DNA from: a virus
Length of the DNA stretch: 64,000 nt
Strand: one strand, 5' to 3'
IMG/VR virus record: IMGVR_UViG_3300029953_000012
Span: 36,201-100,200 of that record
In this document: in pieces, positions 5,026-63,614 of the stretch
How positions within the stretch are numbered: position 1 is the stretch's first letter
Layout: each line of letters opens with the position of its first letter
The notes under the pieces: generated by a model
What the model saw: the letters and a program-made list of their open reading frames with translations, nothing else
What the model was told of the DNA's origin: nothing
Databases searched by the model: none
Position numbers and translations under genes: made by a program

Positions 5026-5026
5026 T

Positions 5027-8455: not shown

Positions 8456-8474
8456 AAATTTTATTTATATATTA

Positions 8475-10535: not shown

Positions 10536-10552
10536 TTACCGTTTTCCTACTG

Positions 10553-10561
10553 TAATTACAC
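10553..10561 (-). promoter_or_regulatory. Late-promoter motif GTGTAATTA
   Basis: Exact copy, intergenic, 17 nt upstream of the ATG at 10535. Confidence 0.7.
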
Positions 10562-10562
10562 A

Positions 10563-12209: not shown

Positions 12210-12219
12210 TCCTAATCAT

Positions 12220-12228
12220 TAATTACAC
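12220..12228 (-). promoter_or_regulatory. Late-promoter motif GTGTAATTA
   Basis: Exact copy, 10 nt upstream of the ATG at 12209. Confidence 0.7.
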
Positions 12229-12254
12229 TATTTTGTTATTTTTTTCTATTTTAT

Positions 12255-12263
12255 GTGTATAAT
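12255..12263 (+). promoter_or_regulatory. Promoter GTGTATAAT driving RNA copy A and the GIY-YIG gene
   Basis: Identical to the variant at 23605-23613 and contains TATAAT. It is back-to-back with the minus-strand motif at 12220 and 4 nt before the RNA structure. Confidence 0.6.
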
Positions 12264-12267
12264 ATTA

Positions 12268-12365
12268 TGTACAGATAATATGAGATTAGTTAGACCATTT
12301 TGGGCTTTTCGTGAGCGTTTTGGAAACGCACTTCTTCTCATAGAACTGTACAGCACGAAAGGCTT
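12268..12365 (+). ncRNA. Putative pseudoknotted structured RNA leader, copy A (unknown family)
   Basis: P1 pairs TGTACAG/CTGTACA and TATGAGA/TCTCATA (12268-12285 with 12336-12352). P2 pairs 12302-12313 with 12354-12365 (12 bp including G-U). P3 is GCGTTT/AAACGC. The structure ends 2 nt before the endonuclease ATG. Confidence 0.65.
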
Positions 12366-12367
12366 TT

Positions 12368-41683: not shown

Positions 41684-43936
41684 TTATTGATATGGATTAG
41701 CATATGTACCGTAAAATGCCGAATATCCAGTCTCATCAGGGAATCTTATTATCGAATAGACATTGGCTGTTCCAGAATTTGGAAAGGAATACGCGTTAGA
41801 TGGCCATTTTATTTGTTTTAAAACTCCCGTTACCGTAACAGAACTTAAATTAAAAAGCTGTGATGAAGTTCCATTATTCTGTGGTACGTTTATATTTCGC
41901 ACCTTTATTATTAATGATTGTCCAGTGGCGAAATTGTCGCCCGAAATAGTTATGGAAACTGGGTTAACTCCAGCCGCTGCACCAGATGACCCACTTGATA
42001 TCTGTAGTGAGTACATGTCGTAATTCGCGGGGTCCAATAAAACTCCACTACTAGCAGAACCAATACCGTTCCCATATACCAAACTAAAGAAATTTTCAGG
42101 TCTCAAAGTCGTTGGCACACCCGCCGCTCCTTGAGGGCCAGTAGCTCCACCCGACGCTAAAATTTGCCATGGTACACTCGGAGGCGCGATACCACTTATA
42201 TTAGATACGCCGGTATTAATATAACTTGAACCTGACTGTACAACTATTGAATTAGGAATATACACATTCGGTAGTCCAGAATAAGTTCCCGAAAAATGAT
42301 TGGATATCGAACCCGCTGCTCCAGTTGCCCCCGTTGGCCCTACAGGACCAGTTGCGCCGATGGTACCGGATTGACAAAGCATCTGCCAAGGAACATTAGG
42401 GGGGTAAATTCCGCTAATAGTAGTTCCTGTATTGATAAAGGATGACCCCGAAGAGAATACTATATTATCATTGTAGTATGTGGTACCAGAAGCAAAGTTT
42501 CCTTGAAAATTATTACTTAATGTGCCAACTGCGCCAGAAGCTCCTGATGGTCCTCCCGCTGGTAATGGAATCCAAGGCTGAGTTATTCCATTCGCTAATT
42601 GGAACTGAATATAAATATTATTACCGACGCCAGAATATGTATATCCAACGACATCCGCACCATTTTCTCCTGTTGCTCCAACTGGTCCTATATTACCAGT
42701 TGGACCTATATTTCCACTTGGTCCAATTGGTCCTTGAATTCCCGCAGGACCAGCTTGCGAAGAGAAAATAGCATTACCAACCACAACAGCAAACCCAGTA
42801 GATGTTGATGAACTCAAAATCATTGAATCTGTCGTCGTATCTTGACCTAATGTATAAAGTACAAACCCATATTGATACTGACTCTGTGCCGCGAAGCTAG
42901 TGGTAAAAGAAATCTGTGTCCTATAAGGATTATTGACTAAGTTATAGTAAACCACGCTATTAGTCGTTTCTACAAATAAACTTGGGGTAGTATTAGAGTT
43001 ATAAAATCCAGTTGCGGTACCGCTCGGAAAAAAGACTGGCCTCCAGTAACCTGTGTTATAAGCGTCTTCGTAATAGTTAATTTTATTTCCGGCTTGGAAC
43101 GGAAGGGACTGTCCAGAGAAAAACCCAGACATAATAGTAATATCTCCAGATGTCAATGTGTGAGTATTTAATCCACTAGAATTTAAGGTATAACTCATCC
43201 CGCGCATCAGAGTAATATCTGGGAAACTATTACCACTAAAATAAGGATTGATAATTACTTGACTTGGAAAACCAGAGTCGGGAGGATTAGCGCCAGAAGT
43301 ATAAGATGTACCCGATTGTTGGAAATTAAGAGTAACACCTCCGGGCATACCCTGTGGTCCAGCTATTAAAGAAATCGGCGCACCCAACCCCTGATAGTTA
43401 CTAAATTGAGGAAGAATATAATTACCACTTTGGAAAAACCCAGTAACTGAAGTACCAGTAGCTCCACTTAGTCCTTGAAAATTAAAACCAGTTGATGTAT
43501 TATTAGATAGGTAAAAAGAAAGTATATGACTGGTAGTGTTATAAGTAATTCCAGTAACACTTATGCCTGTCGCACCTGTCGGCCCCTGCACCCCAGACAA
43601 ACCCTGTAATCCACTTGGCCCCTGAATAAAAACATAGTCACCATTAAAAGAAAAAACATATCCACCAACGTCTATATATGCCCCGCTTCCAGAAGTATAA
43701 GCATTAAAACTCGTATTGCCAAAATTTATTCCAGAACCAGAAGCCAAACTTAGTTCATTAGCGAATATTTGAGCATAAGGATATAACGATGACCCAATAT
43801 TGTAAACCCCTGAACCAGAAGGAATTAGATTACCAGAGATATTTTGAAATGGAAATAGTGCAAGAATCCCAGACACGAAACCAGATAATTCTGATTGGTT
43901 TAATTGCTTTAGCCTAATTGACGAGTCATATGCCAT
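41684..43936 (-). CDS. Collagen-like fibre protein
   Basis: Several Gly-X-Y runs, two tandem CBM5/12-like modules, N-terminus MAYDSSIRLKQLNQSELSGF. Upstream motif GTGTAATAC at 43948-43956. Confidence 0.8.
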   Translation of the reverse strand: MAYDSSIRLKQLNQSELSGFVSGILALFPFQNISGNLIPSGSGVYNIGSSLYPYAQIFANELSLASGSGINFGNTSFNAYTSGSGAYIDVGGYVFSFNGDYVFIQGPSGLQGLSGVQGPTGATGISVTGITYNTTSHILSFYLSNNTSTGFNFQGLSGATGTSVTGFFQSGNYILPQFSNYQGLGAPISLIAGPQGMPGGVTLNFQQSGTSYTSGANPPDSGFPSQVIINPYFSGNSFPDITLMRGMSYTLNSSGLNTHTLTSGDITIMSGFFSGQSLPFQAGNKINYYEDAYNTGYWRPVFFPSGTATGFYNSNTTPSLFVETTNSVVYYNLVNNPYRTQISFTTSFAAQSQYQYGFVLYTLGQDTTTDSMILSSSTSTGFAVVVGNAIFSSQAGPAGIQGPIGPSGNIGPTGNIGPVGATGENGADVVGYTYSGVGNNIYIQFQLANGITQPWIPLPAGGPSGASGAVGTLSNNFQGNFASGTTYYNDNIVFSSGSSFINTGTTISGIYPPNVPWQMLCQSGTIGATGPVGPTGATGAAGSISNHFSGTYSGLPNVYIPNSIVVQSGSSYINTGVSNISGIAPPSVPWQILASGGATGPQGAAGVPTTLRPENFFSLVYGNGIGSASSGVLLDPANYDMYSLQISSGSSGAAAGVNPVSITISGDNFATGQSLIIKVRNINVPQNNGTSSQLFNLSSVTVTGVLKQIKWPSNAYSFPNSGTANVYSIIRFPDETGYSAFYGTYANPYQ

Positions 43937-43955: not shown

Positions 43956-45839
43956 CTATAATAAAGTTGGTTCGAATGTGTTATTTTCTTCTGGCATATT
44001 TTGTAGGTCATAAAATTGTTTGAGTGCCCAACAACCCAACATTAATGTTGTGTATGAGTCCTTTCTCATTCTACTTGATGTGTTATTTCTCTTCATAACT
44101 TGTGGAAGGTCAAAACTTTGTGTTCCTTTGGCGGTAGTCTTTACTTCAATAGAAGCACATTGATATTTCTGCTGCTTAAGAAGAAACTCTTGGTCATCAA
44201 TCATTTGTATAAGACCACCACTCTTTCTTTCTGAGTCGGTGGCCTTCTTTTCAATTTCTTCAACACCAGTAAGAGACAAATCTATCTCAGAAGCAATTGC
44301 CTTATCGAACGCCGAGACATCTGATTTTATACCAGCGCCAAACCAAATCTTCTTATAGTCAATACATCCTTGTAAATATTCATTGCCCTTTCGAATGAAA
44401 TCAGTAGTAAAATATTGTGTAAAAACAATCTTATGAATTGTGCGGTTGTAATCTCTACGGGCATTTTTTAGTTCTTTCTCAAGTTCTACTCCATCTTTTT
44501 CTGGATAAAATTCGAAAATCTTAAGTTCGATTCCTGCCTTCTTAAATAATTCGTGTTCATTACATGATTCAATAAATTGATATCCGGCATAATCGATACA
44601 AATCATATGAATATCAAAAGAAGTATACAAATAAAAGAAATACTTGATATGGTCTTTCAAGTCTCTTCCGAATTTGGCATAATTATGGACCACGGTACCG
44701 CCCACCTTGCCTTCCTTGAATTTATCATTGTCCGCTTCTATGATTGTCATAGAGAAATTATCAGAAGTAGCAGAATTAGACCAGTTGGGGTCAATGGAAG
44801 CAATATACTTCTTTCCTTTTTCTCCTCTCAAAAGAAGCGTTGGAGTTTCTCCGTCTGGAATGGTGCATTCCATCATCTTTTTCATTGAATAGTAACTATC
44901 ACTTCCATCGATGAATTGCGCCCCATATTCGCGTTTGAAATTAGCCGAACTTGAATTTTCACTTTGAGCTAATTCGATAATAGACTTTTCCATTCTATCA
45001 GCAGGAACAGAATCCCAAGCCATTTGACTCACAAAATATTTAGCACCCTCTTCTGGCATATCAGGGCTATAAATCTCTTTTACAAACTCACTATACTTTT
45101 CATAAAGATATTCACAAGTATAACTGGCAGACGAAAGAGCTATAAACTTCGCGTTGTTTTTAAAATTCATTCTTTCTTCTTCCTTCAAAACACCCCTTCT
45201 TATTAATTCTGTTTCCTTGGCTCGAATAATTTGGCGTTCTTTAATATCTTGAGGAGCCACCAAGTACGGAATCAAAACCTTTTCGACCATGTCTTTATTC
45301 ATCAACAAGAATTCGTCAATGATAAGAATGTTGGCACGGAAACCACGAATCTTTTCGCCGTTAAGAGGAATGGCTGTAATTTCTCCACCGTTAACCAGCC
45401 AACTAAATTGGTCATTTCTTTTGCTTTTAACTCCCATGGCCTGAAATAATAATTGAGCATCAGGATTATCACATATCTTTTCTATATAATTAAAAATAAG
45501 ACGTGCTGTACGGAATGTCGGACCAGCTATAAGAATCATTGAACCGGGAAAGAAAATACACTGAAGCAGACAATACACGGCGGCAATATAGCTCTTACCA
45601 CAACCACGACCCCAAACACAAAGGGAGTAATTTGCGTCCATTAGACCTTTGATATTTATTATTTGGTCTGGATAAAGCTTGATACCAGCAATCATATCCG
45701 CCGTAAATCCAAGGTTATAAAAAAGGAATTTAGCCAAAGTAATTCTGGCAGTATTCTCATCCATTTCTCCATGGATGTTTAATATTTCTTTATTTATATC
45801 TGCTTTCTTTTTTCTGTATTTTTCGGGATAAAAAATCAT
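43956..45839 (-). CDS. terL: Terminase large subunit
   Basis: Walker A 'GRGCGKS', 'IRGFRANILIIDEF' Walker B, coupling motif 'LSSA', and RNase H-like nuclease acids 'SIDP...SD' and 'RKDSY'. Confidence 0.92.
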   Translation of the reverse strand: MIFYPEKYRKKKADINKEILNIHGEMDENTARITLAKFLFYNLGFTADMIAGIKLYPDQIINIKGLMDANYSLCVWGRGCGKSYIAAVYCLLQCIFFPGSMILIAGPTFRTARLIFNYIEKICDNPDAQLLFQAMGVKSKRNDQFSWLVNGGEITAIPLNGEKIRGFRANILIIDEFLLMNKDMVEKVLIPYLVAPQDIKERQIIRAKETELIRRGVLKEEERMNFKNNAKFIALSSASYTCEYLYEKYSEFVKEIYSPDMPEEGAKYFVSQMAWDSVPADRMEKSIIELAQSENSSSANFKREYGAQFIDGSDSYYSMKKMMECTIPDGETPTLLLRGEKGKKYIASIDPNWSNSATSDNFSMTIIEADNDKFKEGKVGGTVVHNYAKFGRDLKDHIKYFFYLYTSFDIHMICIDYAGYQFIESCNEHELFKKAGIELKIFEFYPEKDGVELEKELKNARRDYNRTIHKIVFTQYFTTDFIRKGNEYLQGCIDYKKIWFGAGIKSDVSAFDKAIASEIDLSLTGVEEIEKKATDSERKSGGLIQMIDDQEFLLKQQKYQCASIEVKTTAKGTQSFDLPQVMKRNNTSSRMRKDSYTTLMLGCWALKQFYDLQNMPEENNTFEPTLL

Positions 45840-50607: not shown

Positions 50608-52476
50608 TTATTGAGTGAATTCGGAACTTACTAATCCCACGTTTACTAGATTTGTAAAAGCTAAAATATCATTTGGAGAAACGGGGATAGAAATATCACT
50701 AATATCATTACCAGTATTTGATGTCAATGGCGCGTTGACCAATCGTTTTCTAAATTGACCAGATGAATAATTCGTTATTAAAAATGATGCAATTGGTGAA
50801 GAAACAGAATTTGTTATAGCGTAACTAATAGTTAAAGTCCCACGACCGCCATAAGTATTTGTCCAACAAGACGTAATTGATATTGGATTTTCTATTACAA
50901 GTAACTGACCACTAAATATCCCACCTTGAAATACGTCTGCCTTTAAAGTGTTTGGATAATAAGTATTAGTCGCATTTTGAATAGGATTAGTTCCTTGCCC
51001 ATTCCAGTTGGCAAACCAAGTCAGCATTGAAACATTATTATAAATATAGGCATCCAACCCTCCGTAATTATTAAAGTAATTTCCTGTTACTACGGTATTC
51101 GTCGTATTATAAAGTAAAAGTGCTTCAGTATTTGTGCCTACTGCCCCTAAATAAGCTGAGGACATGTTATTTCTAATCGTTACATTATTTAGGTTTGTGG
51201 AAGTTAATCCTAAAATATGAATTCCAATTGAGTTTTGACTGCCAGAATAGAAAATTGTATTATCATGGATATTTAAATTATTTTCAAGATAAGAAGTTGT
51301 GGAATTTATAAAAATACCTTTAAAAACATTAACCATGTAATTATTACAGATTTCCCAGTCCTGCCAAGCATTAGACTCAGAGTAAATTCCAACTGCGGCA
51401 GAAGCGAGAGCGATTTGGTTAATATCACGAATATAATTTCCGTCTACCTTAAAACCTTTGATAAACCCAAAATTACAAATAAAATTAAAATATCCCGGAG
51501 TCATTAATCCTCCTGTCGTATCTGTCGTAACTGAAGTGTCCATGGAACAGTTTTTAATCTCACCGCCCAACAGCCAGCCATTTGTAACGGTTAGAGTGTC
51601 TGGTATGGAAAGTACTGGTGGTGAATTATTTGAAGCATTGCCGTTAAAACCATATCCACCCATACTAAGAAAATCCACTCCAGCATTAGGAGCCATAACC
51701 ATATTAGCACAAGAACCCAAAATGCAACCATCAATTAAAGCATGATGAACAGCGTTCGTTTGTACTGAGCCATAAAAATTACCGCCATAAGTCCAAATAT
51801 TAAGTATAAACTGTTCTTGATTTGTAATAGCTAATCCCCAGTTAATTACTTCGACGTTCTTAATCGTAGCATTATCACCAGTTAAAGTAACTGCTCTATA
51901 ATAAGTGTTACTCCAAGCTTGATTTTGCTCATTCATGTCAATAGTAAGATTCTCAACCATCATATTACTACGACCAAGTGGCAGATACCCAACATTCCCA
52001 CCAATAATATCATTATTATAACCACCAGCACCGGGGTCACGCTGGATAATTGTTTTGTTTCGTCCAGCCCCATCAATATCATAACCAGTCTGCATAACCA
52101 GTCCATTAGTGTCATGAAATGTACCGGCATTTAAATGGATTTTCGTATTAATTGGAAAAAAATTAGTCCAAGGAAATAAACCGTCAAATGTTACAGCATT
52201 AGTGGCTATATAAGGATTTGCCTGACTACCGTTGCCAGAGCCATTAATACCAACAGGAGAAATCCATATTTCATTAGCATTAGTTGCACTTTTTGTAAAC
52301 CAATTAAATAAATTAGCCGAAGTAATTTGGTAGGTTATAGAATTGCTAGCTTCCAAAAACGTCTCGTTGCCATTTAAAACGCCCGTTATTGGATAATTCG
52401 TCCAATTAAGACCAAAACATGTCCCTGTTACTAGAAAAGTCACCGCCATTACAAAGAAAAATCTTTTAATATTCAT
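50608..52476 (-). CDS. Signal-peptide-bearing right-handed beta-helix (pectin-lyase-like) protein
   Basis: MNIKRFFFVMAVTFLVTGTCFG signal. 'IWISP.G..GSG.GSQANPY', 'IHLNAGTF', 'IDGAGRNKTII', 'VENLTID'. Upstream motif GTGTAATAT at 52485-52493. Confidence 0.75.
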   Translation of the reverse strand: MNIKRFFFVMAVTFLVTGTCFGLNWTNYPITGVLNGNETFLEASNSITYQITSANLFNWFTKSATNANEIWISPVGINGSGNGSQANPYIATNAVTFDGLFPWTNFFPINTKIHLNAGTFHDTNGLVMQTGYDIDGAGRNKTIIQRDPGAGGYNNDIIGGNVGYLPLGRSNMMVENLTIDMNEQNQAWSNTYYRAVTLTGDNATIKNVEVINWGLAITNQEQFILNIWTYGGNFYGSVQTNAVHHALIDGCILGSCANMVMAPNAGVDFLSMGGYGFNGNASNNSPPVLSIPDTLTVTNGWLLGGEIKNCSMDTSVTTDTTGGLMTPGYFNFICNFGFIKGFKVDGNYIRDINQIALASAAVGIYSESNAWQDWEICNNYMVNVFKGIFINSTTSYLENNLNIHDNTIFYSGSQNSIGIHILGLTSTNLNNVTIRNNMSSAYLGAVGTNTEALLLYNTTNTVVTGNYFNNYGGLDAYIYNNVSMLTWFANWNGQGTNPIQNATNTYYPNTLKADVFQGGIFSGQLLVIENPISITSCWTNTYGGRGTLTISYAITNSVSSPIASFLITNYSSGQFRKRLVNAPLTSNTGNDISDISIPVSPNDILAFTNLVNVGLVSSEFTQ

Positions 52477-52499
52477 TATACCTTATATTACACTATTTT

Positions 52500-55400
52500 T
52501 TATTGTGATATAAAAGTATGGACTATTAAAGTACTTATGGTTACTTTTCCGCCACCACCGCCACTGCTGCCTCCACCAGACGTAGTCCAAGTTCCTGAGT
52601 TCCAGTTAAATACTGTCGAGGTATTGTTCGTTAGAGTTATCACTGCCCCAGATAGAGAATTCTCGTATATGAAATCGTTGCTAGGCCCGGAATTATAAAT
52701 TATAATCTGAGAATTGACGGGAATAGCGTTAGAATCATTGTTGATGATTACTAACGGTCTATTCGGGGAAGTTAAATAATATTTTGAACCCAAAGCATAA
52801 CTGACATAGTTTGTGGAAATTCCATTTGTTCCTACTATACCACCGCTGTTACTTATCTCAGTCCAGTAGTTATTGTTCGTGGAAATAGAAGGATAGTTTA
52901 TTTGAAAATAATTGCTGGAAAGTATAGTGTTTCCAGAATTCGTAGGAACAACATTATTAGTGTATGTGACGCCATTGGTCATATACGTATAAACAATTGC
53001 CTTGTACACTAGATTAGTAATCAGCGAAGAGTCACATGTTAAACCGTAATTGTACAGGGCTGGAGCTACTATGACACTGTTTGAACCGGGAGAATTGAAC
53101 TGGCTATAATTATTATTGCTGATGAATATATTAGTCGTCCAGCCGTAGGTTAACCACAAGGTTTCAATTGGATTAGCTATATTCGTACTTTGCATCGTAT
53201 TACCAGTGACGTATATATTCTCTGAGTGACTTATATCCAGAGACGGATTAAGAGATGTAAGGCTAGGAAATGAAGATACAGCAATGTCAGCATTCACGAA
53301 AAGGTTGCTTGTAATTAAGATGTTTGATTGACAGGTAAAGGCAGTTTCTGCACTGTCAGAACCAGTGACGATAGCGATATCATTATTTCCAGAATTAAAG
53401 AAATAGTTGTTAGATACCACGCAATTAACCAAGTGATTGAGATTAAGGAAGATATTACCGCCCGCAGGATTTGTATAGTAGCAGTCGTTATTAATGAAAT
53501 AGAAGAATGGTATATTACTATAACTAGCTGAGAATCCAATAGAGCATTCGCCAAAACAATTAGTTATAAGGCAATTTTCCAAATAATTAGGTATAGTACA
53601 TCTGTTTCCATACCATTCAATTGGAGCCAATACATCATTGAATGTGCAATTTGTAATAATCATATTAGCACCAGCATTAGCGCAGTCTGCTCTACAATCA
53701 TAAAACGTGGTATTAATATAAGTAAAGACATTAGCGTTAGTTGAACCGTCTGGATTCTTTAATACTTCGCCCTGCCATCCTTGCCACAACATATTAGTAG
53801 ACAAAACGCTAAAATCAGTACTATTCCAATTAGGAACATTTGTAGTCCATTGGAATGTCGCCACAAAAGCATCGTGGGTAACATCCCATCCAAATCCATC
53901 CACTTGATTTTGTCCACCAACACCATAACTATTATTCCTAAAGTTATCCTCCGTAGCCACATTAGGAATTCCACCATCAATATTAATCCCTGTAAATATA
54001 AGAGGAGTATTTGTCCCTACTAAATTTGTCGGTGTAAATTCATCAAACATGAATCCTCTTTGTGGAGAATTCGTTCCAGATGGAAAAATTCCCGGACCTT
54101 CACTACCCATGGCAACAGGTTCTGATATTCTAGCTCCTTGACCTATTAGATGAGTAAGATTAGTTCCATCACCCAGAATCGTAAATCCACCCTGACTCAG
54201 ATGAACTCCATACCAGTTATATGTAACATCTTGATTCGTGGCTAGAATTAGATAATTTCCAGTAGGGATGTATAGAATGCTAGAACCAGTATTATTTGTA
54301 TATAAAGCAGTGAGTGCAGTGTTAAATGCAGATTCATTATCATGGCCTAACGTAGCGAAAGTATGAGTCAAAGTGTTGGAGCATACCTTGGAAAGATAGA
54401 GGTTTGTTCCATTAACCACGTTGGTAACGGTAGCTACAAGGTCTAAATACCCGTTGGTATAGATATTAAAGCTATTCGTTCCAAAAGGAGTAATTGGTCC
54501 TGCGTTGAATACTTCAATGGCGTCTCCAATAACACTATTCGAGATGATATTTGTTGTAGTTACCAAATTTAAATTGGAAGTTGTATTGACGTAAAATTGA
54601 ACTGCGTCTCCTAACGCTCCATAGTTAGTTACATTAATACTTAATGAAGGAGAGTTTGATAAATATTGCAACGAAGCCGTGTATATTACTCCGGGACTGG
54701 CAGAATTATTTGTCTCGTTAAAAGAATCAATCTGAATAGTATTGGCACCCGAATTAACATACAGTACGTTTGTATATCCTGAGATATACCCTGAAGCATC
54801 TCCCTCATTAGTGAAAGTCACTGAAGCTGAGTTAGCTCCAATAGTTACTCTGCATAATCCGGGATTCCCTAAATATCCGTATCCACCGTTAACTATAATT
54901 CTGTAGTATCCACTATTCGTAAAATTAAGCGTATTCTGTATGCTGCTATACTGATTTACTAAAGTCCAAGAATACTGTCCTCCATACTGTTGAGAGTAAT
55001 CTGACTGATTATAACCACCATTTGCTCCAAAATAAGGATTTCCTGCTGTAGTTGCTATGGCTACGAAGTTACTGCTTTGCAATGTTTTAATAGAATTAGT
55101 GCCTACTCCAGCGAATACCGTAGGATTATTTAAATTAGTTCCAGTTAAATTTAATTGTTGAAGTATCCATGCAAACTGATTCGATACGGTATTTAGTCTG
55201 GATAAAGTTACCCAATTAGTACATTCAGTATATGCTAAAGTAAGATTAGTCTGCATCGAATATAATACTGGAAATGTAAAAGTACCCGGAAAAATAGATT
55301 CAGAATATCCACTGCTTAATCCATGAAGTGCTATATTATTAGTTACAACACTCTGTTCAAAGGCATTATAAAAATTTAACATAGGTACTGACGACTCAGA

Positions 55401-57473
55401 ATAATACCCAGTAAAAAACTCTGTTAATACAGTAGATTCAGTCAGCGTGTTGTTCCACCATGTACGCGGGTAAGCATAATAATCCCAAGGATTATAAGGT
55501 ATCTGGTCTGGATTGCCCTGACATCCTGCCTCAAATACTCCTTTGCTTTGCAAGAATTTTATTCTATCAATCAAACCGTTTACTTCAGGAATTATTAATA
55601 AAGGATTTTTCTGGGCGTAATCAGTCAATAATAAATCATACCCATACGACCCGAGATTTGTAGTCATACTGCTCCAATTTACCCAATTATTAGAAATGGA
55701 GGCATTATAGGAAGATGACGTTGGGAGTACGGGTTGACCATATACACATACTTGCATGTGTAAATTACTAGGGAGTTTACCAAAATTAGTTGGCGCACTA
55801 TTTAAACTAGCATAGGCTAAACCGGACACAATGGCATTAGTATCACCTAACTGAGTTACCTTATTAGCTACGTTAGTTAATAAATAACAATATTCTCCTG
55901 AATAAGAAATAGGCAAACCCGGATTACCAACCCAAGCATCACCTGTTGATTTAAATGGAGTATTTAAAGATACTTCGGCAGCATTAGTAGAGAATGAAGA
56001 ATCATCAATAGGATATATACCATAATACCTAGAGAAAGACTTATACGTTAACGCGTAGTTAACATCAGGAGGACTTGAAGTGTCACAATTATACACTTTA
56101 TTAGCCAACCAAGTGCTTAAATTAGTATTTGACTGTGACCAAGTTAATACAATTCCACTATATGAACCCAATCCAGCAGCATCATAAACTCCATTAGTCG
56201 GATTAACTAACTGCCCTCCAAAATAACCCCACCAATTAGTATCAACTAAGATTCCATTAATCACCTGATTAGTCATCTCTAATATCCTTGTGGGAACTAC
56301 TATATTATAATTATGAGGATAACTGCCGAATCCTTCAGTATAATTTGAATTGATTATTCCCAGTGCGGCCTCATACTTAATTTCTGACCCTGAAAATAAA
56401 TATGACCCACTGTAAGTACTAGTCCAGTGATTCCTCCACCAGTACAGATAACCTTGTCTGGTAGGTCCGTCTATTCTCGTCCAAGGATAGAAATCACCTA
56501 TTGCAAAATTAGCATAGATACTTTTTACACTCGGGTTTAAATTGTATGGCAAGGAAGATAAAGAAACTCCAGAATTATAAGGTATATAATCTCCATCTTC
56601 ATCAGGATATACCCATCTAACCCCCTGAGATTCCAAGAAATTCAAAACCCCATACCAAACATCCATATATGGCCACCCAGTAAAATCAACTTCTCTTGTT
56701 CCTTGTATTGTTGCTGTAATATTTGTTGGCAGTACTCCATTTAATAGATTACTGCTCTGTATGGCGTATGATGTTGCGTTGTTTTGTAAATCTACTACTC
56801 GATAAATAGTTCCGGGATACGAATTAGTCTGAGAAGGTAAAATGATTGGTACGGGTCTTCCTTCTAACTCTGACAAATAATAACTGAGGTCAGAAGAGCA
56901 TTGTAGTAATCCTCCACCTAAGGAATTGGTAGCAGCCACGACGGCGTCCAAGTTAGTATAACTACCTAAAGAACCGTGAATTTGATTAGTAAAACAATCC
57001 CAAATCAGGTTTGCTGGTGGAGAAATTAGTGTCCAATAAGCATTTGTAGCTGACCAATTTTGGTTAGTAAGTAATGATAGAGTAACATATCTTCCTACTA
57101 TTGGAGTGAATCTTATTGATGTCTGACTCTCTATCACACTTCCTGCATTGAATGCCCCATTAGAAAAGTTAGCATCATAGGGAACCCATTGAGTTCCTAC
57201 TAAATTAGTAGCCGGAGAACTATTTCCTACATAAACATTGACAACACCTATAGGATTAGTTTGCCATGTAGTATTTACATTGTTTGGCCACATAGGAGTA
57301 TATGAATAGTTGGTACCTGAAGTAAATACTCCTACTATAGTATTAGTACCTCCCATATCAAGAGTATACTCATTAACGGCATTAGTAATGACTGCTGAAT
57401 AAGGCAAGATGCTGGACTCAACACTGATACAAAAAAACAGTAGACTTAAAAAGATGGCTAAGAGTTTGGTCAT
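52500..57473 (-). CDS. Large signal-peptide-bearing multidomain carbohydrate-active protein (DUF4838-like plus beta-helix)
   Basis: Start revised to MTKLLAIFLSLLFFC at 57473. 'WYGVLNFLESQGVRWVYP...GDYIP' and 'Y...R..WN......L.EFFTGYY' are DUF4838-like. 'INVTNYGALGD...LYIPTGNY' is pectate-lyase-3-like. Confidence 0.65.
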   Translation of the reverse strand: MTKLLAIFLSLLFFCISVESSILPYSAVITNAVNEYTLDMGGTNTIVGVFTSGTNYSYTPMWPNNVNTTWQTNPIGVVNVYVGNSSPATNLVGTQWVPYDANFSNGAFNAGSVIESQTSIRFTPIVGRYVTLSLLTNQNWSATNAYWTLISPPANLIWDCFTNQIHGSLGSYTNLDAVVAATNSLGGGLLQCSSDLSYYLSELEGRPVPIILPSQTNSYPGTIYRVVDLQNNATSYAIQSSNLLNGVLPTNITATIQGTREVDFTGWPYMDVWYGVLNFLESQGVRWVYPDEDGDYIPYNSGVSLSSLPYNLNPSVKSIYANFAIGDFYPWTRIDGPTRQGYLYWWRNHWTSTYSGSYLFSGSEIKYEAALGIINSNYTEGFGSYPHNYNIVVPTRILEMTNQVINGILVDTNWWGYFGGQLVNPTNGVYDAAGLGSYSGIVLTWSQSNTNLSTWLANKVYNCDTSSPPDVNYALTYKSFSRYYGIYPIDDSSFSTNAAEVSLNTPFKSTGDAWVGNPGLPISYSGEYCYLLTNVANKVTQLGDTNAIVSGLAYASLNSAPTNFGKLPSNLHMQVCVYGQPVLPTSSSYNASISNNWVNWSSMTTNLGSYGYDLLLTDYAQKNPLLIIPEVNGLIDRIKFLQSKGVFEAGCQGNPDQIPYNPWDYYAYPRTWWNNTLTESTVLTEFFTGYYSESSVPMLNFYNAFEQSVVTNNIALHGLSSGYSESIFPGTFTFPVLYSMQTNLTLAYTECTNWVTLSRLNTVSNQFAWILQQLNLTGTNLNNPTVFAGVGTNSIKTLQSSNFVAIATTAGNPYFGANGGYNQSDYSQQYGGQYSWTLVNQYSSIQNTLNFTNSGYYRIIVNGGYGYLGNPGLCRVTIGANSASVTFTNEGDASGYISGYTNVLYVNSGANTIQIDSFNETNNSASPGVIYTASLQYLSNSPSLSINVTNYGALGDAVQFYVNTTSNLNLVTTTNIISNSVIGDAIEVFNAGPITPFGTNSFNIYTNGYLDLVATVTNVVNGTNLYLSKVCSNTLTHTFATLGHDNESAFNTALTALYTNNTGSSILYIPTGNYLILATNQDVTYNWYGVHLSQGGFTILGDGTNLTHLIGQGARISEPVAMGSEGPGIFPSGTNSPQRGFMFDEFTPTNLVGTNTPLIFTGINIDGGIPNVATEDNFRNNSYGVGGQNQVDGFGWDVTHDAFVATFQWTTNVPNWNSTDFSVLSTNMLWQGWQGEVLKNPDGSTNANVFTYINTTFYDCRADCANAGANMIITNCTFNDVLAPIEWYGNRCTIPNYLENCLITNCFGECSIGFSASYSNIPFFYFINNDCYYTNPAGGNIFLNLNHLVNCVVSNNYFFNSGNNDIAIVTGSDSAETAFTCQSNILITSNLFVNADIAVSSFPSLTSLNPSLDISHSENIYVTGNTMQSTNIANPIETLWLTYGWTTNIFISNNNYSQFNSPGSNSVIVAPALYNYGLTCDSSLITNLVYKAIVYTYMTNGVTYTNNVVPTNSGNTILSSNYFQINYPSISTNNNYWTEISNSGGIVGTNGISTNYVSYALGSKYYLTSPNRPLVIINNDSNAIPVNSQIIIYNSGPSNDFIYENSLSGAVITLTNNTSTVFNWNSGTWTTSGGGSSGGGGGKVTISTLIVHTFISQ

Positions 57474-57475
57474 AA

Positions 57476-58849
57476 TTACCACGAATTTGTCAACATGGCT
57501 GGCGTGGTTGATAAGTAGGTAATTCCGCATTTACTTCCGGGTTGAAGAACGAAGTAATCGTCGCCCGCAAGTGATTGGTAAACCGCCACACCGTTCTTTG
57601 AAACACTGTACGCTGCCGCATCGCTAAAATAGCATTCCAACGCAACAGGTGCATTGTTCGTGAAATTGAATGTTGACGCTCCAACGGTGACAGCAACTGG
57701 AATATGAGCGGTGTATGACGCAATTCCATTCGTTACCTGAATGCTGCCATTTAGTGTCAAGGTAATAGGAAGAGAATATCCTAATCCTCCGCTAGTAACA
57801 TAACTAACATTAGTATTCCCTCCAGTTAATAATAAATTGTATGCAGAAGTTCTAATCAACGCCATTTCATTAACCGTTGAATCACCCGGAGTATTGACAC
57901 TTGACCAAGTAATTGGACAAGTGCTTGCAAGTTGAAATCCTCCCCAGTAACTGCTAACATTGAATCCGTAAGGTGCGCCTATACTATAATTATTGAGAGA
58001 AGGGAATGATAAACCTCCGTTAAATGTAGTATATGACCCAGTAGCTCCAATATTAATATTACCGCCGCTATTAATTCCTAAATTAATATCTAAATTTGTA
58101 TCTACAGATAGGAACGTATTTGACCCAGAAGCACTTAAAACTGAGAAATAAAGAATATCACTTGAAGCAGCCCATAAAATATCATTAGTATAGAGAGAGT
58201 TAGTAATGGATAAACTAGGAAAAATACTGCCTCCACCTCCACCGCTCGCCGCTATCATATTTGTTCTCTGGCCTGTAGAACTATTCGTAACGCTGGTTAT
58301 GGTCACATTCGCACCCGCAATCAAAATGTCGTGCTGCCAATTAGTCAACCCACTAGCATCTCCAATTATCGGAGAAAGAAGAACAAAATTAGTAGCCGTA
58401 ACATTAGAGAAGGTTGCATTTGAAACTACTGTTAAACTATTTATGGTGGTATTTCCAGTGAGGGTTGCGTTTGTGATGCTAGCGCCAGACACAAGGTTGG
58501 AGGATACACCGGCTGTCAAGGCAGTCGTTGCGCTGGTTGCCGAGGTCGCATTGCCAATGAAGGTGCCAGTGATATTATTTCCAGAATTTGTCAACGTGAC
58601 TGCTCCAGCATTATTATTAGTAATTCCACTGGTGGAATTGCTTACAATGAGGTTCTGATTAATCCAATTCAATAGATTACTGGACATAATTAGATGGTTT
58701 TGGGTATTATTTGAATTTCCAATCAAAAATGTTTCACTGCCAGTTAAGTTTGTTACCTGCGAATAAGTTAGCCAAGACCCCGCGAACGAAGTCTGATAGA
58801 ATAATAAAATACTGGCTATAAAAGAGAATAGGGATGTTAATTTTTTCAT
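57476..58849 (-). CDS. Signal-peptide-bearing fibre-like protein
   Basis: Start revised to MKKLTSLFSFIASILLFYQTSFAG at 58849. Fibre motifs 'GTFIGNATSATSAT', 'GDASGLTN' and 'LIAGANVTIT'. Confidence 0.65.
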   Translation of the reverse strand: MKKLTSLFSFIASILLFYQTSFAGSWLTYSQVTNLTGSETFLIGNSNNTQNHLIMSSNLLNWINQNLIVSNSTSGITNNNAGAVTLTNSGNNITGTFIGNATSATSATTALTAGVSSNLVSGASITNATLTGNTTINSLTVVSNATFSNVTATNFVLLSPIIGDASGLTNWQHDILIAGANVTITSVTNSSTGQRTNMIAASGGGGGSIFPSLSITNSLYTNDILWAASSDILYFSVLSASGSNTFLSVDTNLDINLGINSGGNINIGATGSYTTFNGGLSFPSLNNYSIGAPYGFNVSSYWGGFQLASTCPITWSSVNTPGDSTVNEMALIRTSAYNLLLTGGNTNVSYVTSGGLGYSLPITLTLNGSIQVTNGIASYTAHIPVAVTVGASTFNFTNNAPVALECYFSDAAAYSVSKNGVAVYQSLAGDDYFVLQPGSKCGITYLSTTPAMLTNSW

Positions 58850-58902
58850 TTTTAATATGTTATAAAAAAACTCCAATCAAAATAATCATGAATTTACTCA
58901 TA

Positions 58903-59031
58903 TTAGAAAGTACCGACACTGAGGGGGAACCCTCCGGTATTTGTATAGATAATTCCGTGCGTCAACGCGGAGTTCGTGCAAACGTACTGTAGTCCGGCGA
59001 TGCGACTGAGGATGGCGAGGGGTTTGGTCAT
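58903..59031 (-). pseudogene. Short GC-rich ORF, probable remnant of another TN-rich secreted gene
   Basis: MTKPLAILSRIAGLQYVCTNSALTHGIIYTNTGGFPLSVGTF. It starts 1 nt after the upstream stop, its N-terminus resembles MTKLLAI of 52500-57473, and its h-region is broken. Confidence 0.35.
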
Positions 59032-59032
59032 G

Positions 59033-61798
59033 TTACCAGATAACCGGGGTGGCGTTTGTGGTAAGATTAGCCATAACAAAACTGATGATTTGCTTGGCGT
59101 AATAAAGATGCCCTGCCGCATTCGGATGCGGTCCGTTGCCGGAGTAATAAGTGTAGGCCGTTCCCGAGCCGGGGACTAAATAGCTTCCCTGAATCCATGA
59201 GTCCGCCGCGTTTGGCTCTGGAAGAAGCACCGGCAATCCACACGTCGCCGCCGCATTGCTAATAATCAGGTCGGATGGCGCTTCCGAACCAACAGGGGAA
59301 GTGATTCCAGGGAATGGCGCAATGACGATTTGCTTGCAGTTTGGCAGAAAAGATTTGGTCAATAAATAAACGTTGGTCGCCGCCGCGTACAAACCATTTG
59401 TGGGGTCGTTTATGCCTTCCGCCCAAATAATGAAACTCGGGTGAAAGTTCAGAATACAGTTTGTTAGCCGCTGAATGATTGGAAGCCCGACCACTTGACC
59501 ATTGTAAATATTGGTCGCAATGTAACCCGTCCCGCCTTCCGCTTGAGGCACTAAGTTTATCCCTTGAGGCATCAGAGTATCCTGTAATATCGAAGGGTAA
59601 GCATCAGGACCGTCAGCACCCGAAGAACTACCGACCCCCGCAGTGATGCTGTCCCCCCCAATAATGCCGGTCGAATAGGGTTTTTGAACTGAAACAAAGG
59701 AGTTTGTCACCGGCTCAAACATTCCCACGATTGTTCCTCCCACTCCATGCACTTCAATGTGGTGAAATCCAAAGTTCGGCCACGTCAAAACTAATGAGAG
59801 AATATTCCCGCTTTGGGGCGTCAGAGTGACCCAATTTTTCTGGACTTCGGGAAGTGTGTCACTATTAAACCAATAAGGGCCGGAATACAGAAGCAGACCC
59901 AGACTATTGCCGATAAATTGCGTTTCACCCCTTAAATCGTGATTTTGTGGCGCGTATGGAGCACCCGGTGGACCCACATCAGACCAACCCGTTAGGCCAT
60001 TAACCGCGCCAAACGCAAGATAGTTTGTTAGATAACCACACCAGTACGAAAAATATGGTGAATTTGTCAGGCTTAAATTTCCTCCGTAAGTATTGCCGCT
60101 GATTGTATAACCAAACCAGTTTGTATTCCCAAAATAACCGTATGTGGTATAGCTCGCGTTCGTTTGTACCACCGTTACCGTTACACCGTTTTGTTGGCCT
60201 AATTGTCCAACAAGGTTATAGCCGCTCAAGTTCGTCAACCCGCCGCCGTTGCCACTCACGTTCAGCAAAACAGCATTCGTTATTACCAGCGTGCCTATTC
60301 CTCCCACCAGAGCGCCCGCGTTCACATTTGTAAGCCCGTTGCCGTTGCCGGTGAAGGTGCCATTAAAACTACCATTAAGGTTGGCCACACTATTTGTAGG
60401 GATAAATAGCTCAGGCCAATTAGCCATCATTGCTGCTTTAATTCTTTGAGCGATATTATAATGACCTTCGACATTAGGATGCGGAAAAGCTGAACCATAA
60501 TAAGGGTCAGTAAGTGTAATGGCGGTACCGTTTACAATTGAACCTACATTAGCATTACCCGTTATTAGTGCTGGACTAGTATAGTCAATAAATTGATTTG
60601 AAGAAGTTATAAACCCAGAAGCCAAACCAGCGGCTCTTATAATCTGAGTAGCTAACCAAGTATTATCTCCCGGATTTGACTGTTGACCTAAAGGCATTTC
60701 ACCGCCAAGTAATCTATTTTGATTTGGGAATAAGGCGACAATATTTGTCATAGCCATATAACAATAGGTATAAAGAGTATTGTTTGTTAGGATACTATTA
60801 GTTGCATAACCCCCATCATTAGAAAGGGAAATTATCATATATTTAGGATTTAAAGTTTGCATATCCACAATTCTTCCCCACAAATTCGTTCTTGGTCCTG
60901 ATGGGTCAGTATTTACCCAACCAGTACCACCTTCTCCCATATTATTAATCCAAATATTTTTACAATCAGGGTCGATATTCAAATAATCAAAATAAGAACC
61001 ATTACCGTTAGGTGCTCCAGTTCCTTCTGTTACACTATCACCCCATACATAAACGGGTGTTTTTGGTAGCAACGGTTCAATGGCAAATTGTACTGGGGTT
61101 TCAATCCCGATACAAGTACTGATATTTTTAATTATCACTGTATGCCAATTAGTTGTATTTAAAGTGACTGTAGTTAGCCATTCTAATGCACCATCGCTTG
61201 GTATAGCATAAGAGTATGGATTGTTGTCGGCGTACTGTACAATTCCATCTACAATTATCATAGGTGTGCAATTCCCAGTAGGAAAATGGTCTATTGCGAA
61301 AACATTTCCATAAAATCTAAAACCTAGTGAAATCTGAGATATATCCTCAAGACCTACACCAACAAATTGTAGATATCCAGTTATGGCATTTGTATTTGGA
61401 TAATAAACTCCATTTTTTCCATTTCCCGGCCCTCCATAAACAAACCATCCATAAGAACCCAAAATAGTAAATGGATTTGTGGCTAAATTATATGGTGTGA
61501 TATAATACTCGGTCCAACCAGACGGAATAGTGGATGTCGCGTTGGTGACAATTGAAACTATTTCGGGGGAATAAGAAGGTAAACCAGTTAAAATCAAATT
61601 AGTTGACTTGTTTTGTACCGCCCAAGTACTTAAATTTCCTCCAGTGATTTGTTCTGTATTCGTACCGCTCGCAACTAAAAATGTCTCGTTACCATTTAAA
61701 GAACTTACCACTGGATAGTTCGTCCAAATACCCCCAAAACATATTCCCGTTAAAAACAAGGTGGCAAAGATTGTTGAAAAAATTTTTCTTATATTCAT
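59033..61798 (-). CDS. Signal-peptide-bearing protein with two SGNH/GDSL esterase domains
   Basis: Start revised to MNIRKIF at 61798 (the track's GTG start is the promoter motif). Domain 1: WGDSVTEG/GEGGTGW/SND/HPN..GH. Domain 2: GGDSITAG/AEGGTGY/GIND/HPN..GH. Confidence 0.8.
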   Translation of the reverse strand: MNIRKIFSTIFATLFLTGICFGGIWTNYPVVSSLNGNETFLVASGTNTEQITGGNLSTWAVQNKSTNLILTGLPSYSPEIVSIVTNATSTIPSGWTEYYITPYNLATNPFTILGSYGWFVYGGPGNGKNGVYYPNTNAITGYLQFVGVGLEDISQISLGFRFYGNVFAIDHFPTGNCTPMIIVDGIVQYADNNPYSYAIPSDGALEWLTTVTLNTTNWHTVIIKNISTCIGIETPVQFAIEPLLPKTPVYVWGDSVTEGTGAPNGNGSYFDYLNIDPDCKNIWINNMGEGGTGWVNTDPSGPRTNLWGRIVDMQTLNPKYMIISLSNDGGYATNSILTNNTLYTYCYMAMTNIVALFPNQNRLLGGEMPLGQQSNPGDNTWLATQIIRAAGLASGFITSSNQFIDYTSPALITGNANVGSIVNGTAITLTDPYYGSAFPHPNVEGHYNIAQRIKAAMMANWPELFIPTNSVANLNGSFNGTFTGNGNGLTNVNAGALVGGIGTLVITNAVLLNVSGNGGGLTNLSGYNLVGQLGQQNGVTVTVVQTNASYTTYGYFGNTNWFGYTISGNTYGGNLSLTNSPYFSYWCGYLTNYLAFGAVNGLTGWSDVGPPGAPYAPQNHDLRGETQFIGNSLGLLLYSGPYWFNSDTLPEVQKNWVTLTPQSGNILSLVLTWPNFGFHHIEVHGVGGTIVGMFEPVTNSFVSVQKPYSTGIIGGDSITAGVGSSSGADGPDAYPSILQDTLMPQGINLVPQAEGGTGYIATNIYNGQVVGLPIIQRLTNCILNFHPSFIIWAEGINDPTNGLYAAATNVYLLTKSFLPNCKQIVIAPFPGITSPVGSEAPSDLIISNAAATCGLPVLLPEPNAADSWIQGSYLVPGSGTAYTYYSGNGPHPNAAGHLYYAKQIISFVMANLTTNATPVIW

Positions 61799-61825
61799 AT
61801 AGATATAATACACTGATTTTGATTT

Positions 61826-62086
61826 TTAATTGACATTTATGATTGGATTGCCATTTCCATCCAAGATATACTGTCCATTATCATCAATAGAAAACGCCCC
61901 CACAAACAAAAAGCCTTTTTTAATGAATTCGCGGTCCCATCTCTGGATAAGATATGATGCATCAATAGAATTCACAAAAGAATAATAAGAAGCCGCTTCT
62001 TGGGCAAAAGATGGCCAATCTGCTGCTACAAAAAAAAACTCATGCAGCCTTGTTTCGAAATCTTGGAATGTCCCAGAAATATACAT
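61826..62086 (-). CDS. Small protein, paralog of 62090-62320
   Basis: MYISGTFQDFETRLH...RWDREF.K.G. Confidence 0.6.
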   Translation of the reverse strand: MYISGTFQDFETRLHEFFFVAADWPSFAQEAASYYSFVNSIDASYLIQRWDREFIKKGFLFVGAFSIDDNGQYILDGNGNPIINVN

Positions 62087-62089
62087 ATT

Positions 62090-62320
62090 TTACCCATTCG
62101 TAGGAATAGATAAGGCGGGGGTTGAATAATATTTTTCACTATTAAGAATGGTTTCGCCTATCTTCTGGAATTCGTTATTCCATTTTTTAAGTTGGGCGGC
62201 GGTAATTTGGCCCGAATACCCCGACCCTTCGACTAAAAATCCTGTTGTGAAATCACTCTGGCCTGTTGGCAACTGGTGAAGCCTTTTCTCGAAATCCACG
62301 ATTGAACCTGTGATATACAT
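62090..62320 (-). CDS. Small protein, paralog of 61826-62086
   Basis: Start revised to MYITGSIVDFEKRLH at 62320, 11 nt after GTGTAAATA (62332-62340). Confidence 0.6.
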   Translation of the reverse strand: MYITGSIVDFEKRLHQLPTGQSDFTTGFLVEGSGYSGQITAAQLKKWNNEFQKIGETILNSEKYYSTPALSIPTNG

Positions 62321-62473: not shown

Positions 62474-63076
62474 TCATCCCGGAATTTTTGTCTCTTGATT
62501 TCTCAAAACCCCCAAAGCCTCCCTAGATTTCAGAAATTGCGGGGAGAACGAAGGCTTAAGATTCCGGTAGTGGTTAATTTGGCTTACCTCCCCTAGATTA
62601 TTTAAATCGAAATCATTTATAGGACGGATTAAACGAATTTCCCAAACCTTACCATAGTTTTCCCAAGTCATTTCGGGAAGGAATAGTGATTCAAGGTAAA
62701 CCTTTAATTCTTTGGTTTTTAGGCCAATTTTGCTTTTGAATTTAGTCTTGTCGGCGAGGCGTTTCCTAAGATTATGAGGGATTTTTGTCCAAGGCTGTTT
62801 GTTATAGATTTTAATATAAGCTAAAAGATAAGGTTTGATTTTTTCTTTGTTTTTTAAATACCGTTCCGACAAATATTTGGTTTTTTTTAGTTTGGTTTCT
62901 AAATCTTGGGTTTTGTATTTTATTTGTTGTTTTGTTTTCGTACAAGTGATACAGTAGCAGGCCATACCATCAGGACAAGACATTTGAATTCTAAATGAAT
63001 CATATGCCATTTCTTTTTGACAACAAGTACAAATTTTAAATAAAACAAATTGTTTAGGTTGTTTTGGTTTGGACAT
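62474..63076 (-). CDS. Degenerate HNH-type endonuclease with an N-terminal Zn finger
   Basis: 'LESLFLPEMTWENYGKVWEIRLIRP...NHYRNLKP' aligns with the neighbour, but the catalytic DH is replaced by RL. Confidence 0.7.
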   Translation of the reverse strand: MSKPKQPKQFVLFKICTCCQKEMAYDSFRIQMSCPDGMACYCITCTKTKQQIKYKTQDLETKLKKTKYLSERYLKNKEKIKPYLLAYIKIYNKQPWTKIPHNLRKRLADKTKFKSKIGLKTKELKVYLESLFLPEMTWENYGKVWEIRLIRPINDFDLNNLGEVSQINHYRNLKPSFSPQFLKSREALGVLRNQETKIPG

Positions 63077-63614
63077 ATGTATCACTTTTCTTTAGGTTGT
63101 CTGATGCCCACAAGGGCTGTAAATTAGTATAATGATTAATAGCTAGTAAGTCTTCTTGTTTGGTAACATCAAATAATGAACAAGGTTTTATATGGTCCAC
63201 GTGCCACATTTTTCCATAATTTTCCCAGTTCATACCATCTACAAATCTAGCTTCCAAATGATTTTTTAATTCTGTATTATTACAACCAACTAATTTATTT
63301 TTACCTTTATAATGTTTTTTAGTTGGGTTATTAATAGCTTGTTTGAGGAATTTTCCTAGTCTTAACCTTAGAGATTTACGAATTCTTTTTATACCAGAAA
63401 GGTTTTTAGCTCTTTTTCTGTAATATTCTCTTCGAGCAAGATATCGTCTAACACTCGCAAGTGTTTTTATACTCAAATTAATCATACATCCCTCACATTC
63501 AGATTCAGGTTTCCAATAACTCCAACGATAGTAATAAGAATTTTTTTTTCTTTTCCCTAATCTTTCTTTTTTAAGGCATTTTGGACAGTAATCAAATAAT
63601 AGTAATTGTTCCAT
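63054..63614 (-). CDS. HNH endonuclease
   Basis: 'LEARFVDGMNWENYGKMWHVDHIKPCSLFD...NHYTNLQPLWASDNLKKS'. TATAAT lies 5 nt before the ATG. Confidence 0.85.
   Translation of the reverse strand: MEQLLLFDYCPKCLKKERLGKRKKNSYYYRWSYWKPESECEGCMINLSIKTLASVRRYLARREYYRKRAKNLSGIKRIRKSLRLRLGKFLKQAINNPTKKHYKGKNKLVGCNNTELKNHLEARFVDGMNWENYGKMWHVDHIKPCSLFDVTKQEDLLAINHYTNLQPLWASDNLKKSDTYVQTKTT

Follow-up and report, generated by a model that had tools for sequence, protein, structure and literature searches.

Four consecutive large phage genes with predicted Sec-type leaders, three of which share a module directly after the leader

The stretch of DNA analysed here (the window; 64,000 bp) comprises bases 36201-100200 of a single virus contig of 100,200 bp, IMG/VR record IMGVR_UViG_3300029953_000012, and feature positions are given in window coordinates. 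Four consecutive minus-strand genes, P0001 to P0004, fill positions 50608-61798 and form the cassette under study; each is predicted to begin with a Sec-type signal peptide. The genome also encodes a large terminase (TerL; 43956-45839), a portal (39510-41639; a weak match), a tape measure protein of 2212 aa (14947-21585), replication genes, a sigma factor, and a large set of sugar-nucleotide and glycosyltransferase genes. No near relative was found among 50,697 deposited phages, and no tRNAs were found in the genome. As to the host, TerL reaches no more than ~23% identity with terminases of Firmicutes phages, and no match was obtained for the portal.

The best-supported ATG codons lie at 61798 (P0004), 58849 (P0003), 57473 (P0002), and 52476 (P0001), and were preferred because homologues begin at the equivalent methionine and because these starts fit an upstream motif described below. 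P0004 (also P0011; 59033-61798, minus strand) encodes 921 aa, consisting of a leader, the shared module, a first SGNH domain, a short fibre-like segment with GLTN motifs, and a second SGNH domain; the GTG of its longest frame falls within the promoter-like motif. P0003 (also P0012; 57476-58849, minus strand) encodes 457 aa, with a leader, the module, a low-charge fibre-like body, and a C-terminal globular part. The start of P0002 (52500-57473, minus strand; 1657 aa from MTKLL) is 5 nt past the P0003 stop; this protein has its own leader, lacks the module, and continues with a DUF4838 domain and a long C-terminal extension. Lastly, P0001 (50608-52476, minus strand; 622 aa) combines a leader, the module, a right-handed beta-helix, and a poorly modelled C-terminal region of ~140 aa.

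Leaders were sought in the whole genome with a filter requiring a basic n-region, a hydrophobic core, and small residues at positions -3 and -1, which is a heuristic and not a trained predictor. Among 77 non-overlapping open reading frames (ORFs) of at least 70 aa, four passed, all of them in the cassette, and none of the other 73 did. This agrees with an earlier reading of the window made from sequence only, according to which four consecutive large genes begin with classical signal peptides. All four leaders have one to two basic residues, a hydrophobic core of 11-15 residues, and small residues at -3 and -1, and so fit the signal peptidase I pattern, in which the hydrophobic region spans 7-15 residues and the c-region is polar. 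On the minus strand, the predicted signal peptides are 22 aa in P0004 (61733-61798; MNIRK...CFG), 23 aa in P0003 (58781-58849; MKKLT...SFA), 20 aa in P0002 (57414-57473; MTKLL...VES), and 22 aa in P0001 (52411-52476; MNIKR...CFG). The filter is complemented by homologues for P0002, by homologue starts for P0001, and by the family alignment for P0004, which puts the cut 2-3 residues before the tryptophan of the module.

Comparative analyses indicate that the leaders are retained while their sequences drift. Mean identity among the proteins that share the module is 0.15 over the leader, compared with 0.55 over the first 17 module residues. Similarly, P0002 and its closest relative, P0044, start at the same position and are identical at 5 of 20 leader residues and at 36 of the next 60. 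Such a combination of a diverging leader with a constrained mature N-terminus is expected of a targeting peptide that is discarded, not of a structural element. The hydrophobic cores end in Gly/Thr/Ser-rich c-regions and, at 11-15 residues, are too short for a stable membrane anchor. The sequence-only reading had named homologues that start after the hydrophobic stretch as evidence that would speak against it; instead, the full-length homologues of the P0001 beta-helix protein (P0006-P0008 and P0010) each have a differing leader and linker, and the leader is always kept. Additionally, ~40 bacterial DUF4838 homologues of P0002 have leaders in the corresponding position; some of these proteins are encoded on contigs as long as 4.6 Mb. 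None of the four genes has an in-frame methionine near the cut site, so no start for an isoform lacking the signal peptide was seen.

With leaders confined to these four genes and conserved in presence as their sequences change, Sec export is the best reading of the four N-termini, and as a prediction it is well supported. The four proteins would thus probably reach their mature form beyond the cytoplasm, the compartment in which phage particles are assembled. Two other types of signal were considered and rejected. A lipoprotein (signal peptidase II) signal does not fit: a lipobox would have G, A, or S before a cysteine at +1, but the c-region cysteine follows T, I, or F here and many members lack it. 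Likewise, the proteins do not resemble type IX secretion substrates, as no C-terminal sorting domain of the TIGR04183/TIGR04131 type was found with NCBIfam and Pfam at E-values up to 0.1. In the public annotation, P0001 (there P0005, 613 aa) is called from Met10, which lies within the hydrophobic core, and the n-region is clipped (52449-52476); automated annotation would therefore miss this leader.

The ~40-aa module of P0001, P0003, and P0004 begins 2-4 residues past the predicted cut. It follows the pattern W-(T/L)-(N/T)-Y-(P/S)-x8-E-T-F-L ... Q/H-(I/L) ... N-L-x-x-W, and 16 columns are invariant among the three copies, so that the three-fold sharing noticed from the sequence is borne out. 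All three copies are on the minus strand: in P0004 at 61613-61732 (W-T-N-Y-P ... N-G-N-E-T-F-L ... Q-I-T ... N-L-x-x-W), in P0003 at 58652-58780 (a W-L-T-Y-S variant), and in P0001 at 52297-52410 (pattern and three-copy alignment). A DNA pattern for the module occurs twice in the window, with 0 occurrences expected by chance, and neither the protein nor the DNA pattern was found anywhere else in the genome. An AlphaFold2 (AF2) model from a 20-sequence alignment has a helical leader, a loop with the invariant tryptophan, a beta-hairpin (T-F-L-x-G / x-Q-I-T), and a helix, with predicted local distance difference test (pLDDT) values of 66-92 over residues 1-66. The module had been likened to an 'isqLp...' N-terminus common in phage fibres and was labelled virion-anchor-like on that ground. 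That likeness was not reproduced by any profile or fold search: Pfam, PHROG, and NCBIfam gave no match, and the best hit of a BFVD fold search had an E-value of 0.05. Look-alikes of the module in the ESM Atlas are viral, but their scores are below 0.9 and thus sub-threshold.

A profile of leader plus module was searched against 1.84 billion representative proteins and gave 22 matches, about 19 of which are real clusters, with proteins of 84-921 aa and differing cargo. The module is N-terminal in all ~19 clusters, and a hydrophobic leader precedes it in all but P0031; P0019, P0021, and P0029 are called from a start within the leader and thus lack the basic n-region. Across the family, the invariant tryptophan stands 2-4 residues past the best cut site, and pairwise similarity ends after ~60 residues. 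For instance, a 157-aa protein of locus L001 and P0015 share leader and module (72%) and a C-terminal knob (96%), and P0015 has ~120 extra residues in between. Since similarity is confined to the N-terminus and such a mosaic pair occurs, the leader and the module together act as an N-terminal cassette that can be moved between proteins. The novelty of the present case lies in this conserved post-cleavage module and in a conserved small upstream neighbour.

All family members come from metagenomes, and none bears an NCBI genome name. Every member with readable surrounding DNA is on phage DNA; the readable contexts leave out the long contigs of P0021 (188 kb), P0027 (70 kb), and P0039 (50 kb). 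The sequence-only reading had also named, as evidence that would speak against it, a module common in non-phage secreted proteins and absent from virions; the matches among representative proteins are all metagenomic, and their readable contexts are phage. With the DNA pattern TGGACNAAYTWYCC-N25-GANACNTTYYT, one contig was recovered from IMG/VR and eight matches from metagenomes, of which five are true loci and three arose by chance; all 12 further IMG/VR matches to a looser pattern were chance as well (stops or no leader). Searches of IMG/VR for related loci with P0001 or P0027 alone gave nothing. L001 is syntenic with the present phage (portal 71%, TerL 70%) and has one small leader-plus-module gene between a PhoH-like gene and a ~90-aa gene, compared with four large genes here. 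The same pairing, a ~90-aa gene followed by a leader-plus-module gene, is found in L005 and L008, and L009 is the same phage from another sample. In L002 and L006 (58-60% GC), the gene follows a 917-aa gene with which it forms an overlapping operon, and a protein that matches Streptomyces phage terminases (E 3e-10) is encoded 2.7 kb away. With carriers of 36% and 60% GC, the cassette is therefore present in at least two unrelated phage lineages.

The small upstream gene is represented twice in the window, by an 86-aa protein (MYISGTFQDFETRLH...; 61826-62086, minus strand) directly upstream of P0004 and by its tandem paralogue (MYITGS...; 62090-62317, minus strand). Members of this family have ~75-95 aa (M-Y-x-[ST]-G-x-[FI]-x-D-[FY]-E-x-R-L-H...) and are always directly upstream of the leader-plus-module gene or genes (L001:10276-10557, L005:1246-1494, L008:135-416); no match was found in Pfam, PHROG, or NCBIfam. 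A complex prediction of the mature module (P0011 residues 23-100) with the 86-aa protein scored 0.00, which counts neither way. The upstream gene ends in the motif G-x-Y-(I/L)-L-D-x-x-G-N-P-I-...-V-stop in both lineages, in the 86-aa protein at 36% GC (61826-61880, minus strand) and in the 917-aa protein at 60% GC (L002:7161-7226, plus strand; L006:642-707). A loose expression for this motif matched no other C-terminus in the genome or the loci, and only 11 motif columns align when the two proteins are compared with hhalign.

Behind leader and module, the cargo differs from gene to gene, as had been proposed. Residues ~68-480 of P0001 (51037-52275, minus strand) form a right-handed beta-helix in the AF2 model (pLDDT mostly 70-90), for which Foldseek returned GH136, rhamnogalacturonan lyase, AlgE4, RbmB, and the HK620, Sf6, and CBA120 tailspikes at E-values of 6e-5 to 4e-3. 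A tailspike-type right-handed parallel beta-helix body was found in P0001 only. P0004 matches PF13472 in two stretches (E 4.3e-13; 50.6 bits, cut-off 32.9), and its SGNH blocks have GDS at 258 and 720 and HPN..GH at 445 and 896 in the 926-aa frame; the short segment that separates the two domains contains G-x-G-L-T-N fibre motifs. A full-length homologue of P0004 was not found. P0003 has a low-charge fibre-like body with one G-D-A-S-G-L-T-N motif and gave no match in Pfam, PHROG, or the PDB. For P0002, DUF4838-like and beta-helix domains had been suggested. The former is present (PF16126; 55377-55904, minus strand; E 1.3e-9, 38.1 bits, gathering threshold 26.6) and was also found in 47 homologues, but a C-terminal beta-helix was not confirmed, as neither PDB sequence searches nor an hhalign comparison with the P0001 family produced a match. 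The first ~900 aa of P0002 are homologous to bacterial proteins of ~950-990 aa, to which they are 28-66% identical (34-49% to most). Pfam and NCBIfam identified no peptidoglycan-hydrolase domain in any of the four proteins. Among the relatives, P0010 (MDE2105596.1) is a 991-aa partial protein with a Sec-like leader, long fibre-like repeats, and a beta-helix of the P0001 type (35% identity); its 4.6-kb contig is assigned to a Patescibacteria metagenome-assembled genome (MAG) but may be phage DNA binned into that MAG.

Two genes of the cassette had been noted to carry a late-promoter motif, and this was confirmed. The motif AGTGTAWTW occurs nine times in the window, eight times on the coding strand. 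It lies 7-36 nt before the starts of seven genes, namely those for the portal, a 750-aa fibre, two structural proteins of 833 and 548 aa, the PhoH-like protein, P0001, and P0004 (12221, 38747, 41657, 43949, 50574, 52486, and 61806, all on the minus strand). The P0004 copy, AGTGTATTA (61806-61814, minus strand), is 7 nt before the ATG, and the P0001 copy, AGTGTAATA (52486-52494, minus strand), is 9 nt before it; if the motif is the promoter, the corresponding mRNAs would be nearly leaderless. The shared motif supports co-regulation of P0001 and P0004 with the structural genes, a statement that does not extend to timing as such.

In composition, the four proteins are low in charge and rich in N, S, and T, like the fibre proteins of this phage that lack signal peptides. 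Cysteine content is 0.6-1.3%, as in other genes, N-x-S/T counts equal compositional expectation, and D/E-x-N-x-S/T is almost absent. Glycosylation or disulfide bonding was set aside as an unsupported reason for export, because neither cysteine nor N-x-S/T exceeds what composition predicts or what is found in the fibre proteins without leaders. Of the earlier proposal on export, the Sec route is thus retained and its suggested purpose, glycosylation or oxidation, is not.

These other fibre genes, together with the tail-tip genes, constitute a complete set elsewhere in the window (2120-14943, 27585-28757, and 41684-43936). The fibre-like proteins at 27585-28757 and 41684-43936 (both minus strand) share a different N-terminal module, M-A-[FY]-D-S-[ST]-I-R-L-K-Q-L-N-Q-S-E-L-S-G-F, which is also found at L001:1032-3473. 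Since this module is distinct from the one linked to leaders, the phage has two classes of handle, one on cytoplasmic proteins and one behind a leader.

The closest known arrangement is in Cellulophaga phage phi10:1 (NC_021802). In its GenBank record, gp091-gp094, among them a pectate lyase and a 'tail fiber protein', have Sec leaders at their N-termini and an annotation as structural proteins based on tandem mass spectrometry (MS/MS). Like the present cassette, gp091-gp094 with the gp095 pectate lyase are consecutive late genes of a tailed phage with Sec-type leaders, a beta-helix/pectate-lyase enzyme, and a fibre protein. This example makes the premise that fibres of tailed phages lack signal peptides, from which the sequence-only reading started, too strong. 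However, the phi10:1 proteins have no sequence similarity to those of the cassette (no match in the phage collection) and no shared post-cleavage module; their genes end the tail operon distally, whereas the cassette is upstream of the packaging genes; and their leaders end with the +1 Gln of Bacteroidota, which is seen in few members of the module family.

Multi-tailspike phages resemble the cassette in another respect. The spikes of CBA120 (TSP1-4), G7C (gp63.1 and gp66), and Klebsiella phages with several depolymerases have a short common N-terminal module on unrelated cargo, such as a beta-helix glycanase or an SGNH deacetylase, and the fold of P0001 matches tailspikes. In contrast to the cassette proteins, these spikes have no signal peptide and are assembled in the cytoplasm, and the module has no detectable homology to their anchors. 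P0002 is similar over its first ~900 aa, leader included, to bacterial secreted DUF4838 proteins of ~950-990 aa, but differs from them in a C-terminal extension of ~750 aa, a phage-like composition, and its place in a late phage cassette.

Use of the host Sec system by late phage proteins before lysis is established for endolysins such as Lys44 of fOg44, the signal-arrest-release (SAR) endolysins P1 Lyz and R21, and Ms6 LysA with its chaperone Gp1 (PMC6116005). The cassette proteins differ from these in having no peptidoglycan-hydrolase domain, in being much larger and fibre-like, and in being four in number. In Porphyromonas gingivalis phages, genes with signal peptides of the host Sec type have been read as using host secretion (Matrishin et al. 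2023, PMC10367356). Those phages are temperate, and the genes concerned are of unknown function or encode capsid or spanin proteins; no fibre or depolymerase and no shared module were described there. No description of leader-bearing fibres as a class was found in the literature.

Overall, the observations are best explained by an accessory cassette of four glycan-acting, fibre-like proteins that is transcribed late and leaves the cytoplasm through the host Sec system, a reading that we consider probable though by no means assured. AGTGTAWTW-type promoters would transcribe the cassette along with the portal and fibre genes, with very short mRNA leaders, as the shared motif suggests. The type I signal peptides would then direct the proteins through SecYEG and be removed by signal peptidase I after an A-x-G/A-x-A-like site, a step to which the sequences point strongly, and three mature N-termini would begin 2-4 residues before the invariant tryptophan. 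Comparison shows that the leader and the ~40-aa module, for which a beta-hairpin and then a helix are modelled, recombine as a unit with unrelated cargo; P0002, on this reading, is a captured bacterial secreted DUF4838 enzyme that retained its own leader. Folding would take place in the periplasm or outside the cell, probably as oligomers. Glycans in the envelope or capsule of the infected cell may be the targets of the two SGNH esterases, the DUF4838 enzyme, and the predicted beta-helix glycanase or lyase, and the proteins would be released with progeny at lysis. Through the module as a common handle, the proteins could oligomerise or bind one shared partner, which may be part of the virion or of the envelope.

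Several points weigh against this reading. P0031 lacks a hydrophobic stretch at its N-terminus, although its start may have been miscalled. The leader calls come from sequence features, with cleavage predicted, and the glycan-acting roles are likewise predictions from domains and folds. Composition offers no reason for export, in the form of an excess of cysteine or N-x-S/T, and no recognisable lysis genes adjoin the cassette. Finally, the absence of the family from cellular genomes is a result of the representative-protein search only.

A bolder and more specific version of Sec export is that all four proteins, or only those three that have the module, are receptor-binding or depolymerase appendages of the virion. 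They would mature in the periplasm and dock by the module onto particles built in the cytoplasm once lysis mixes the compartments; we regard this as possible but rather doubtful. Multi-spike phages such as CBA120 and G7C attach several spikes to one site through a shared N-terminal module, and the same module on varied enzymes here recalls that strategy. Docking is also favoured by the G-x-G-L-T-N fibre-shaft motifs of P0003 and P0004, the composition common to the cassette and the fibre proteins without leaders, the upstream motif common to portal and fibre genes, the operon beside a terminase and the 917-aa protein in the 60% GC lineage, and the MS/MS-based annotation of the phi10:1 proteins. 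However, detection of the latter in a virion preparation is compatible with co-purification, and no profile or fold match ties the module to a known anchor domain. Additionally, the phage already has a full set of tail-tip and fibre proteins without leaders, the cassette lies away from the tail module and ranges from one small gene (L001) to four large ones, and P0002 has a leader and no module. Carried further, docking would amount to an extracytoplasmic branch of assembly, in which fibres and enzymes exported by Sec and matured in the periplasm are plugged onto finished virions at lysis by the ~40-aa docking module, with leader and module exchanged between lineages. This we think unlikely, if still worth spelling out. 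The socket part may be the small upstream protein or the G-x-Y-L-L-D-x-x-G-N-P-I tail of the upstream gene.

It is considerably less plausible that the proteins are not exported at all and that the leader stays uncleaved, either as a membrane anchor or as a structural element, so that it tethers them to the cytoplasmic face or the inside of the inner membrane or is buried in an oligomer. Cleavage is a prediction here, the leader is a confident helix in the AF2 model, and SAR endolysins do keep their N-terminal hydrophobic segments uncleaved (PMC6116005), but cores of only 11-15 residues followed by helix-breaking c-regions with A-x-G/A-x-A sites, the low identity of the leader relative to the module (15% vs 55%), and the ordinary leaders at the same place in bacterial DUF4838 homologues make this very improbable. 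The chance is similarly slight that the genes are host-type surface or secreted cargo ('morons') without a lytic role, for example adhesins or nutrient-acquiring glycanases that aid the infected or lysogenised cell. In its favour, P0002 is a member of a large bacterial family over its N-terminal 900 aa, one beta-helix homologue is recorded for a Patescibacteria MAG, and the locus varies between relatives. Yet the phage has its own replication genes and sigma factor, and no integrase is among the 25 Pfam families listed of the 42 matched, for which proteins over 720 aa were left out. Moreover, two of the genes have the upstream motif of structural genes, the leader-plus-module family occurs only in metagenomic records with every readable context being phage, and the composition fits the fibre proteins of this phage and not the bacterial homologues.

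In textbook tailed phages, assembly is entirely cytoplasmic, and leader-bearing, glycan-cutting, fibre-like proteins would depart from that scheme. If they act in the envelope, the phage would deploy secreted enzymes on the surface of its own host before lysis, in a receptor-destroying or matrix-clearing role; if they dock, part of its host-recognition gear would be built beyond the cytoplasm and joined to the particle later. Either reading changes the annotation of depolymerases and receptor-binding proteins in phages known from metagenomes, where gene callers already clip one leader, that of P0001. Expression of such depolymerases would need leader removal or a periplasmic route. The cultured Cellulophaga phages offer a direct experimental handle.

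Other features of the genome are recorded here as separate observations. Upstream of the cassette, two overlapping minus-strand genes (62474-63085 and 63054-63614) encode cysteine-rich paralogues of 203 and 186 aa that are 39% identical over ~70 aa and have no family match. Outside the window, a 98-aa protein (G000:C1:104-400) has a sub-threshold match to the Acb2/Tad1 hairpin domain (PF24729; E 3.8e-5, 24.2 bits, cut-off 27). Also outside the window, and far from the tail module, two adjacent giant genes (G000:C1:23861-33393, minus strand) encode proteins of 1586 and 1587 aa that are without leaders and have a low-charge, fibre-like composition.

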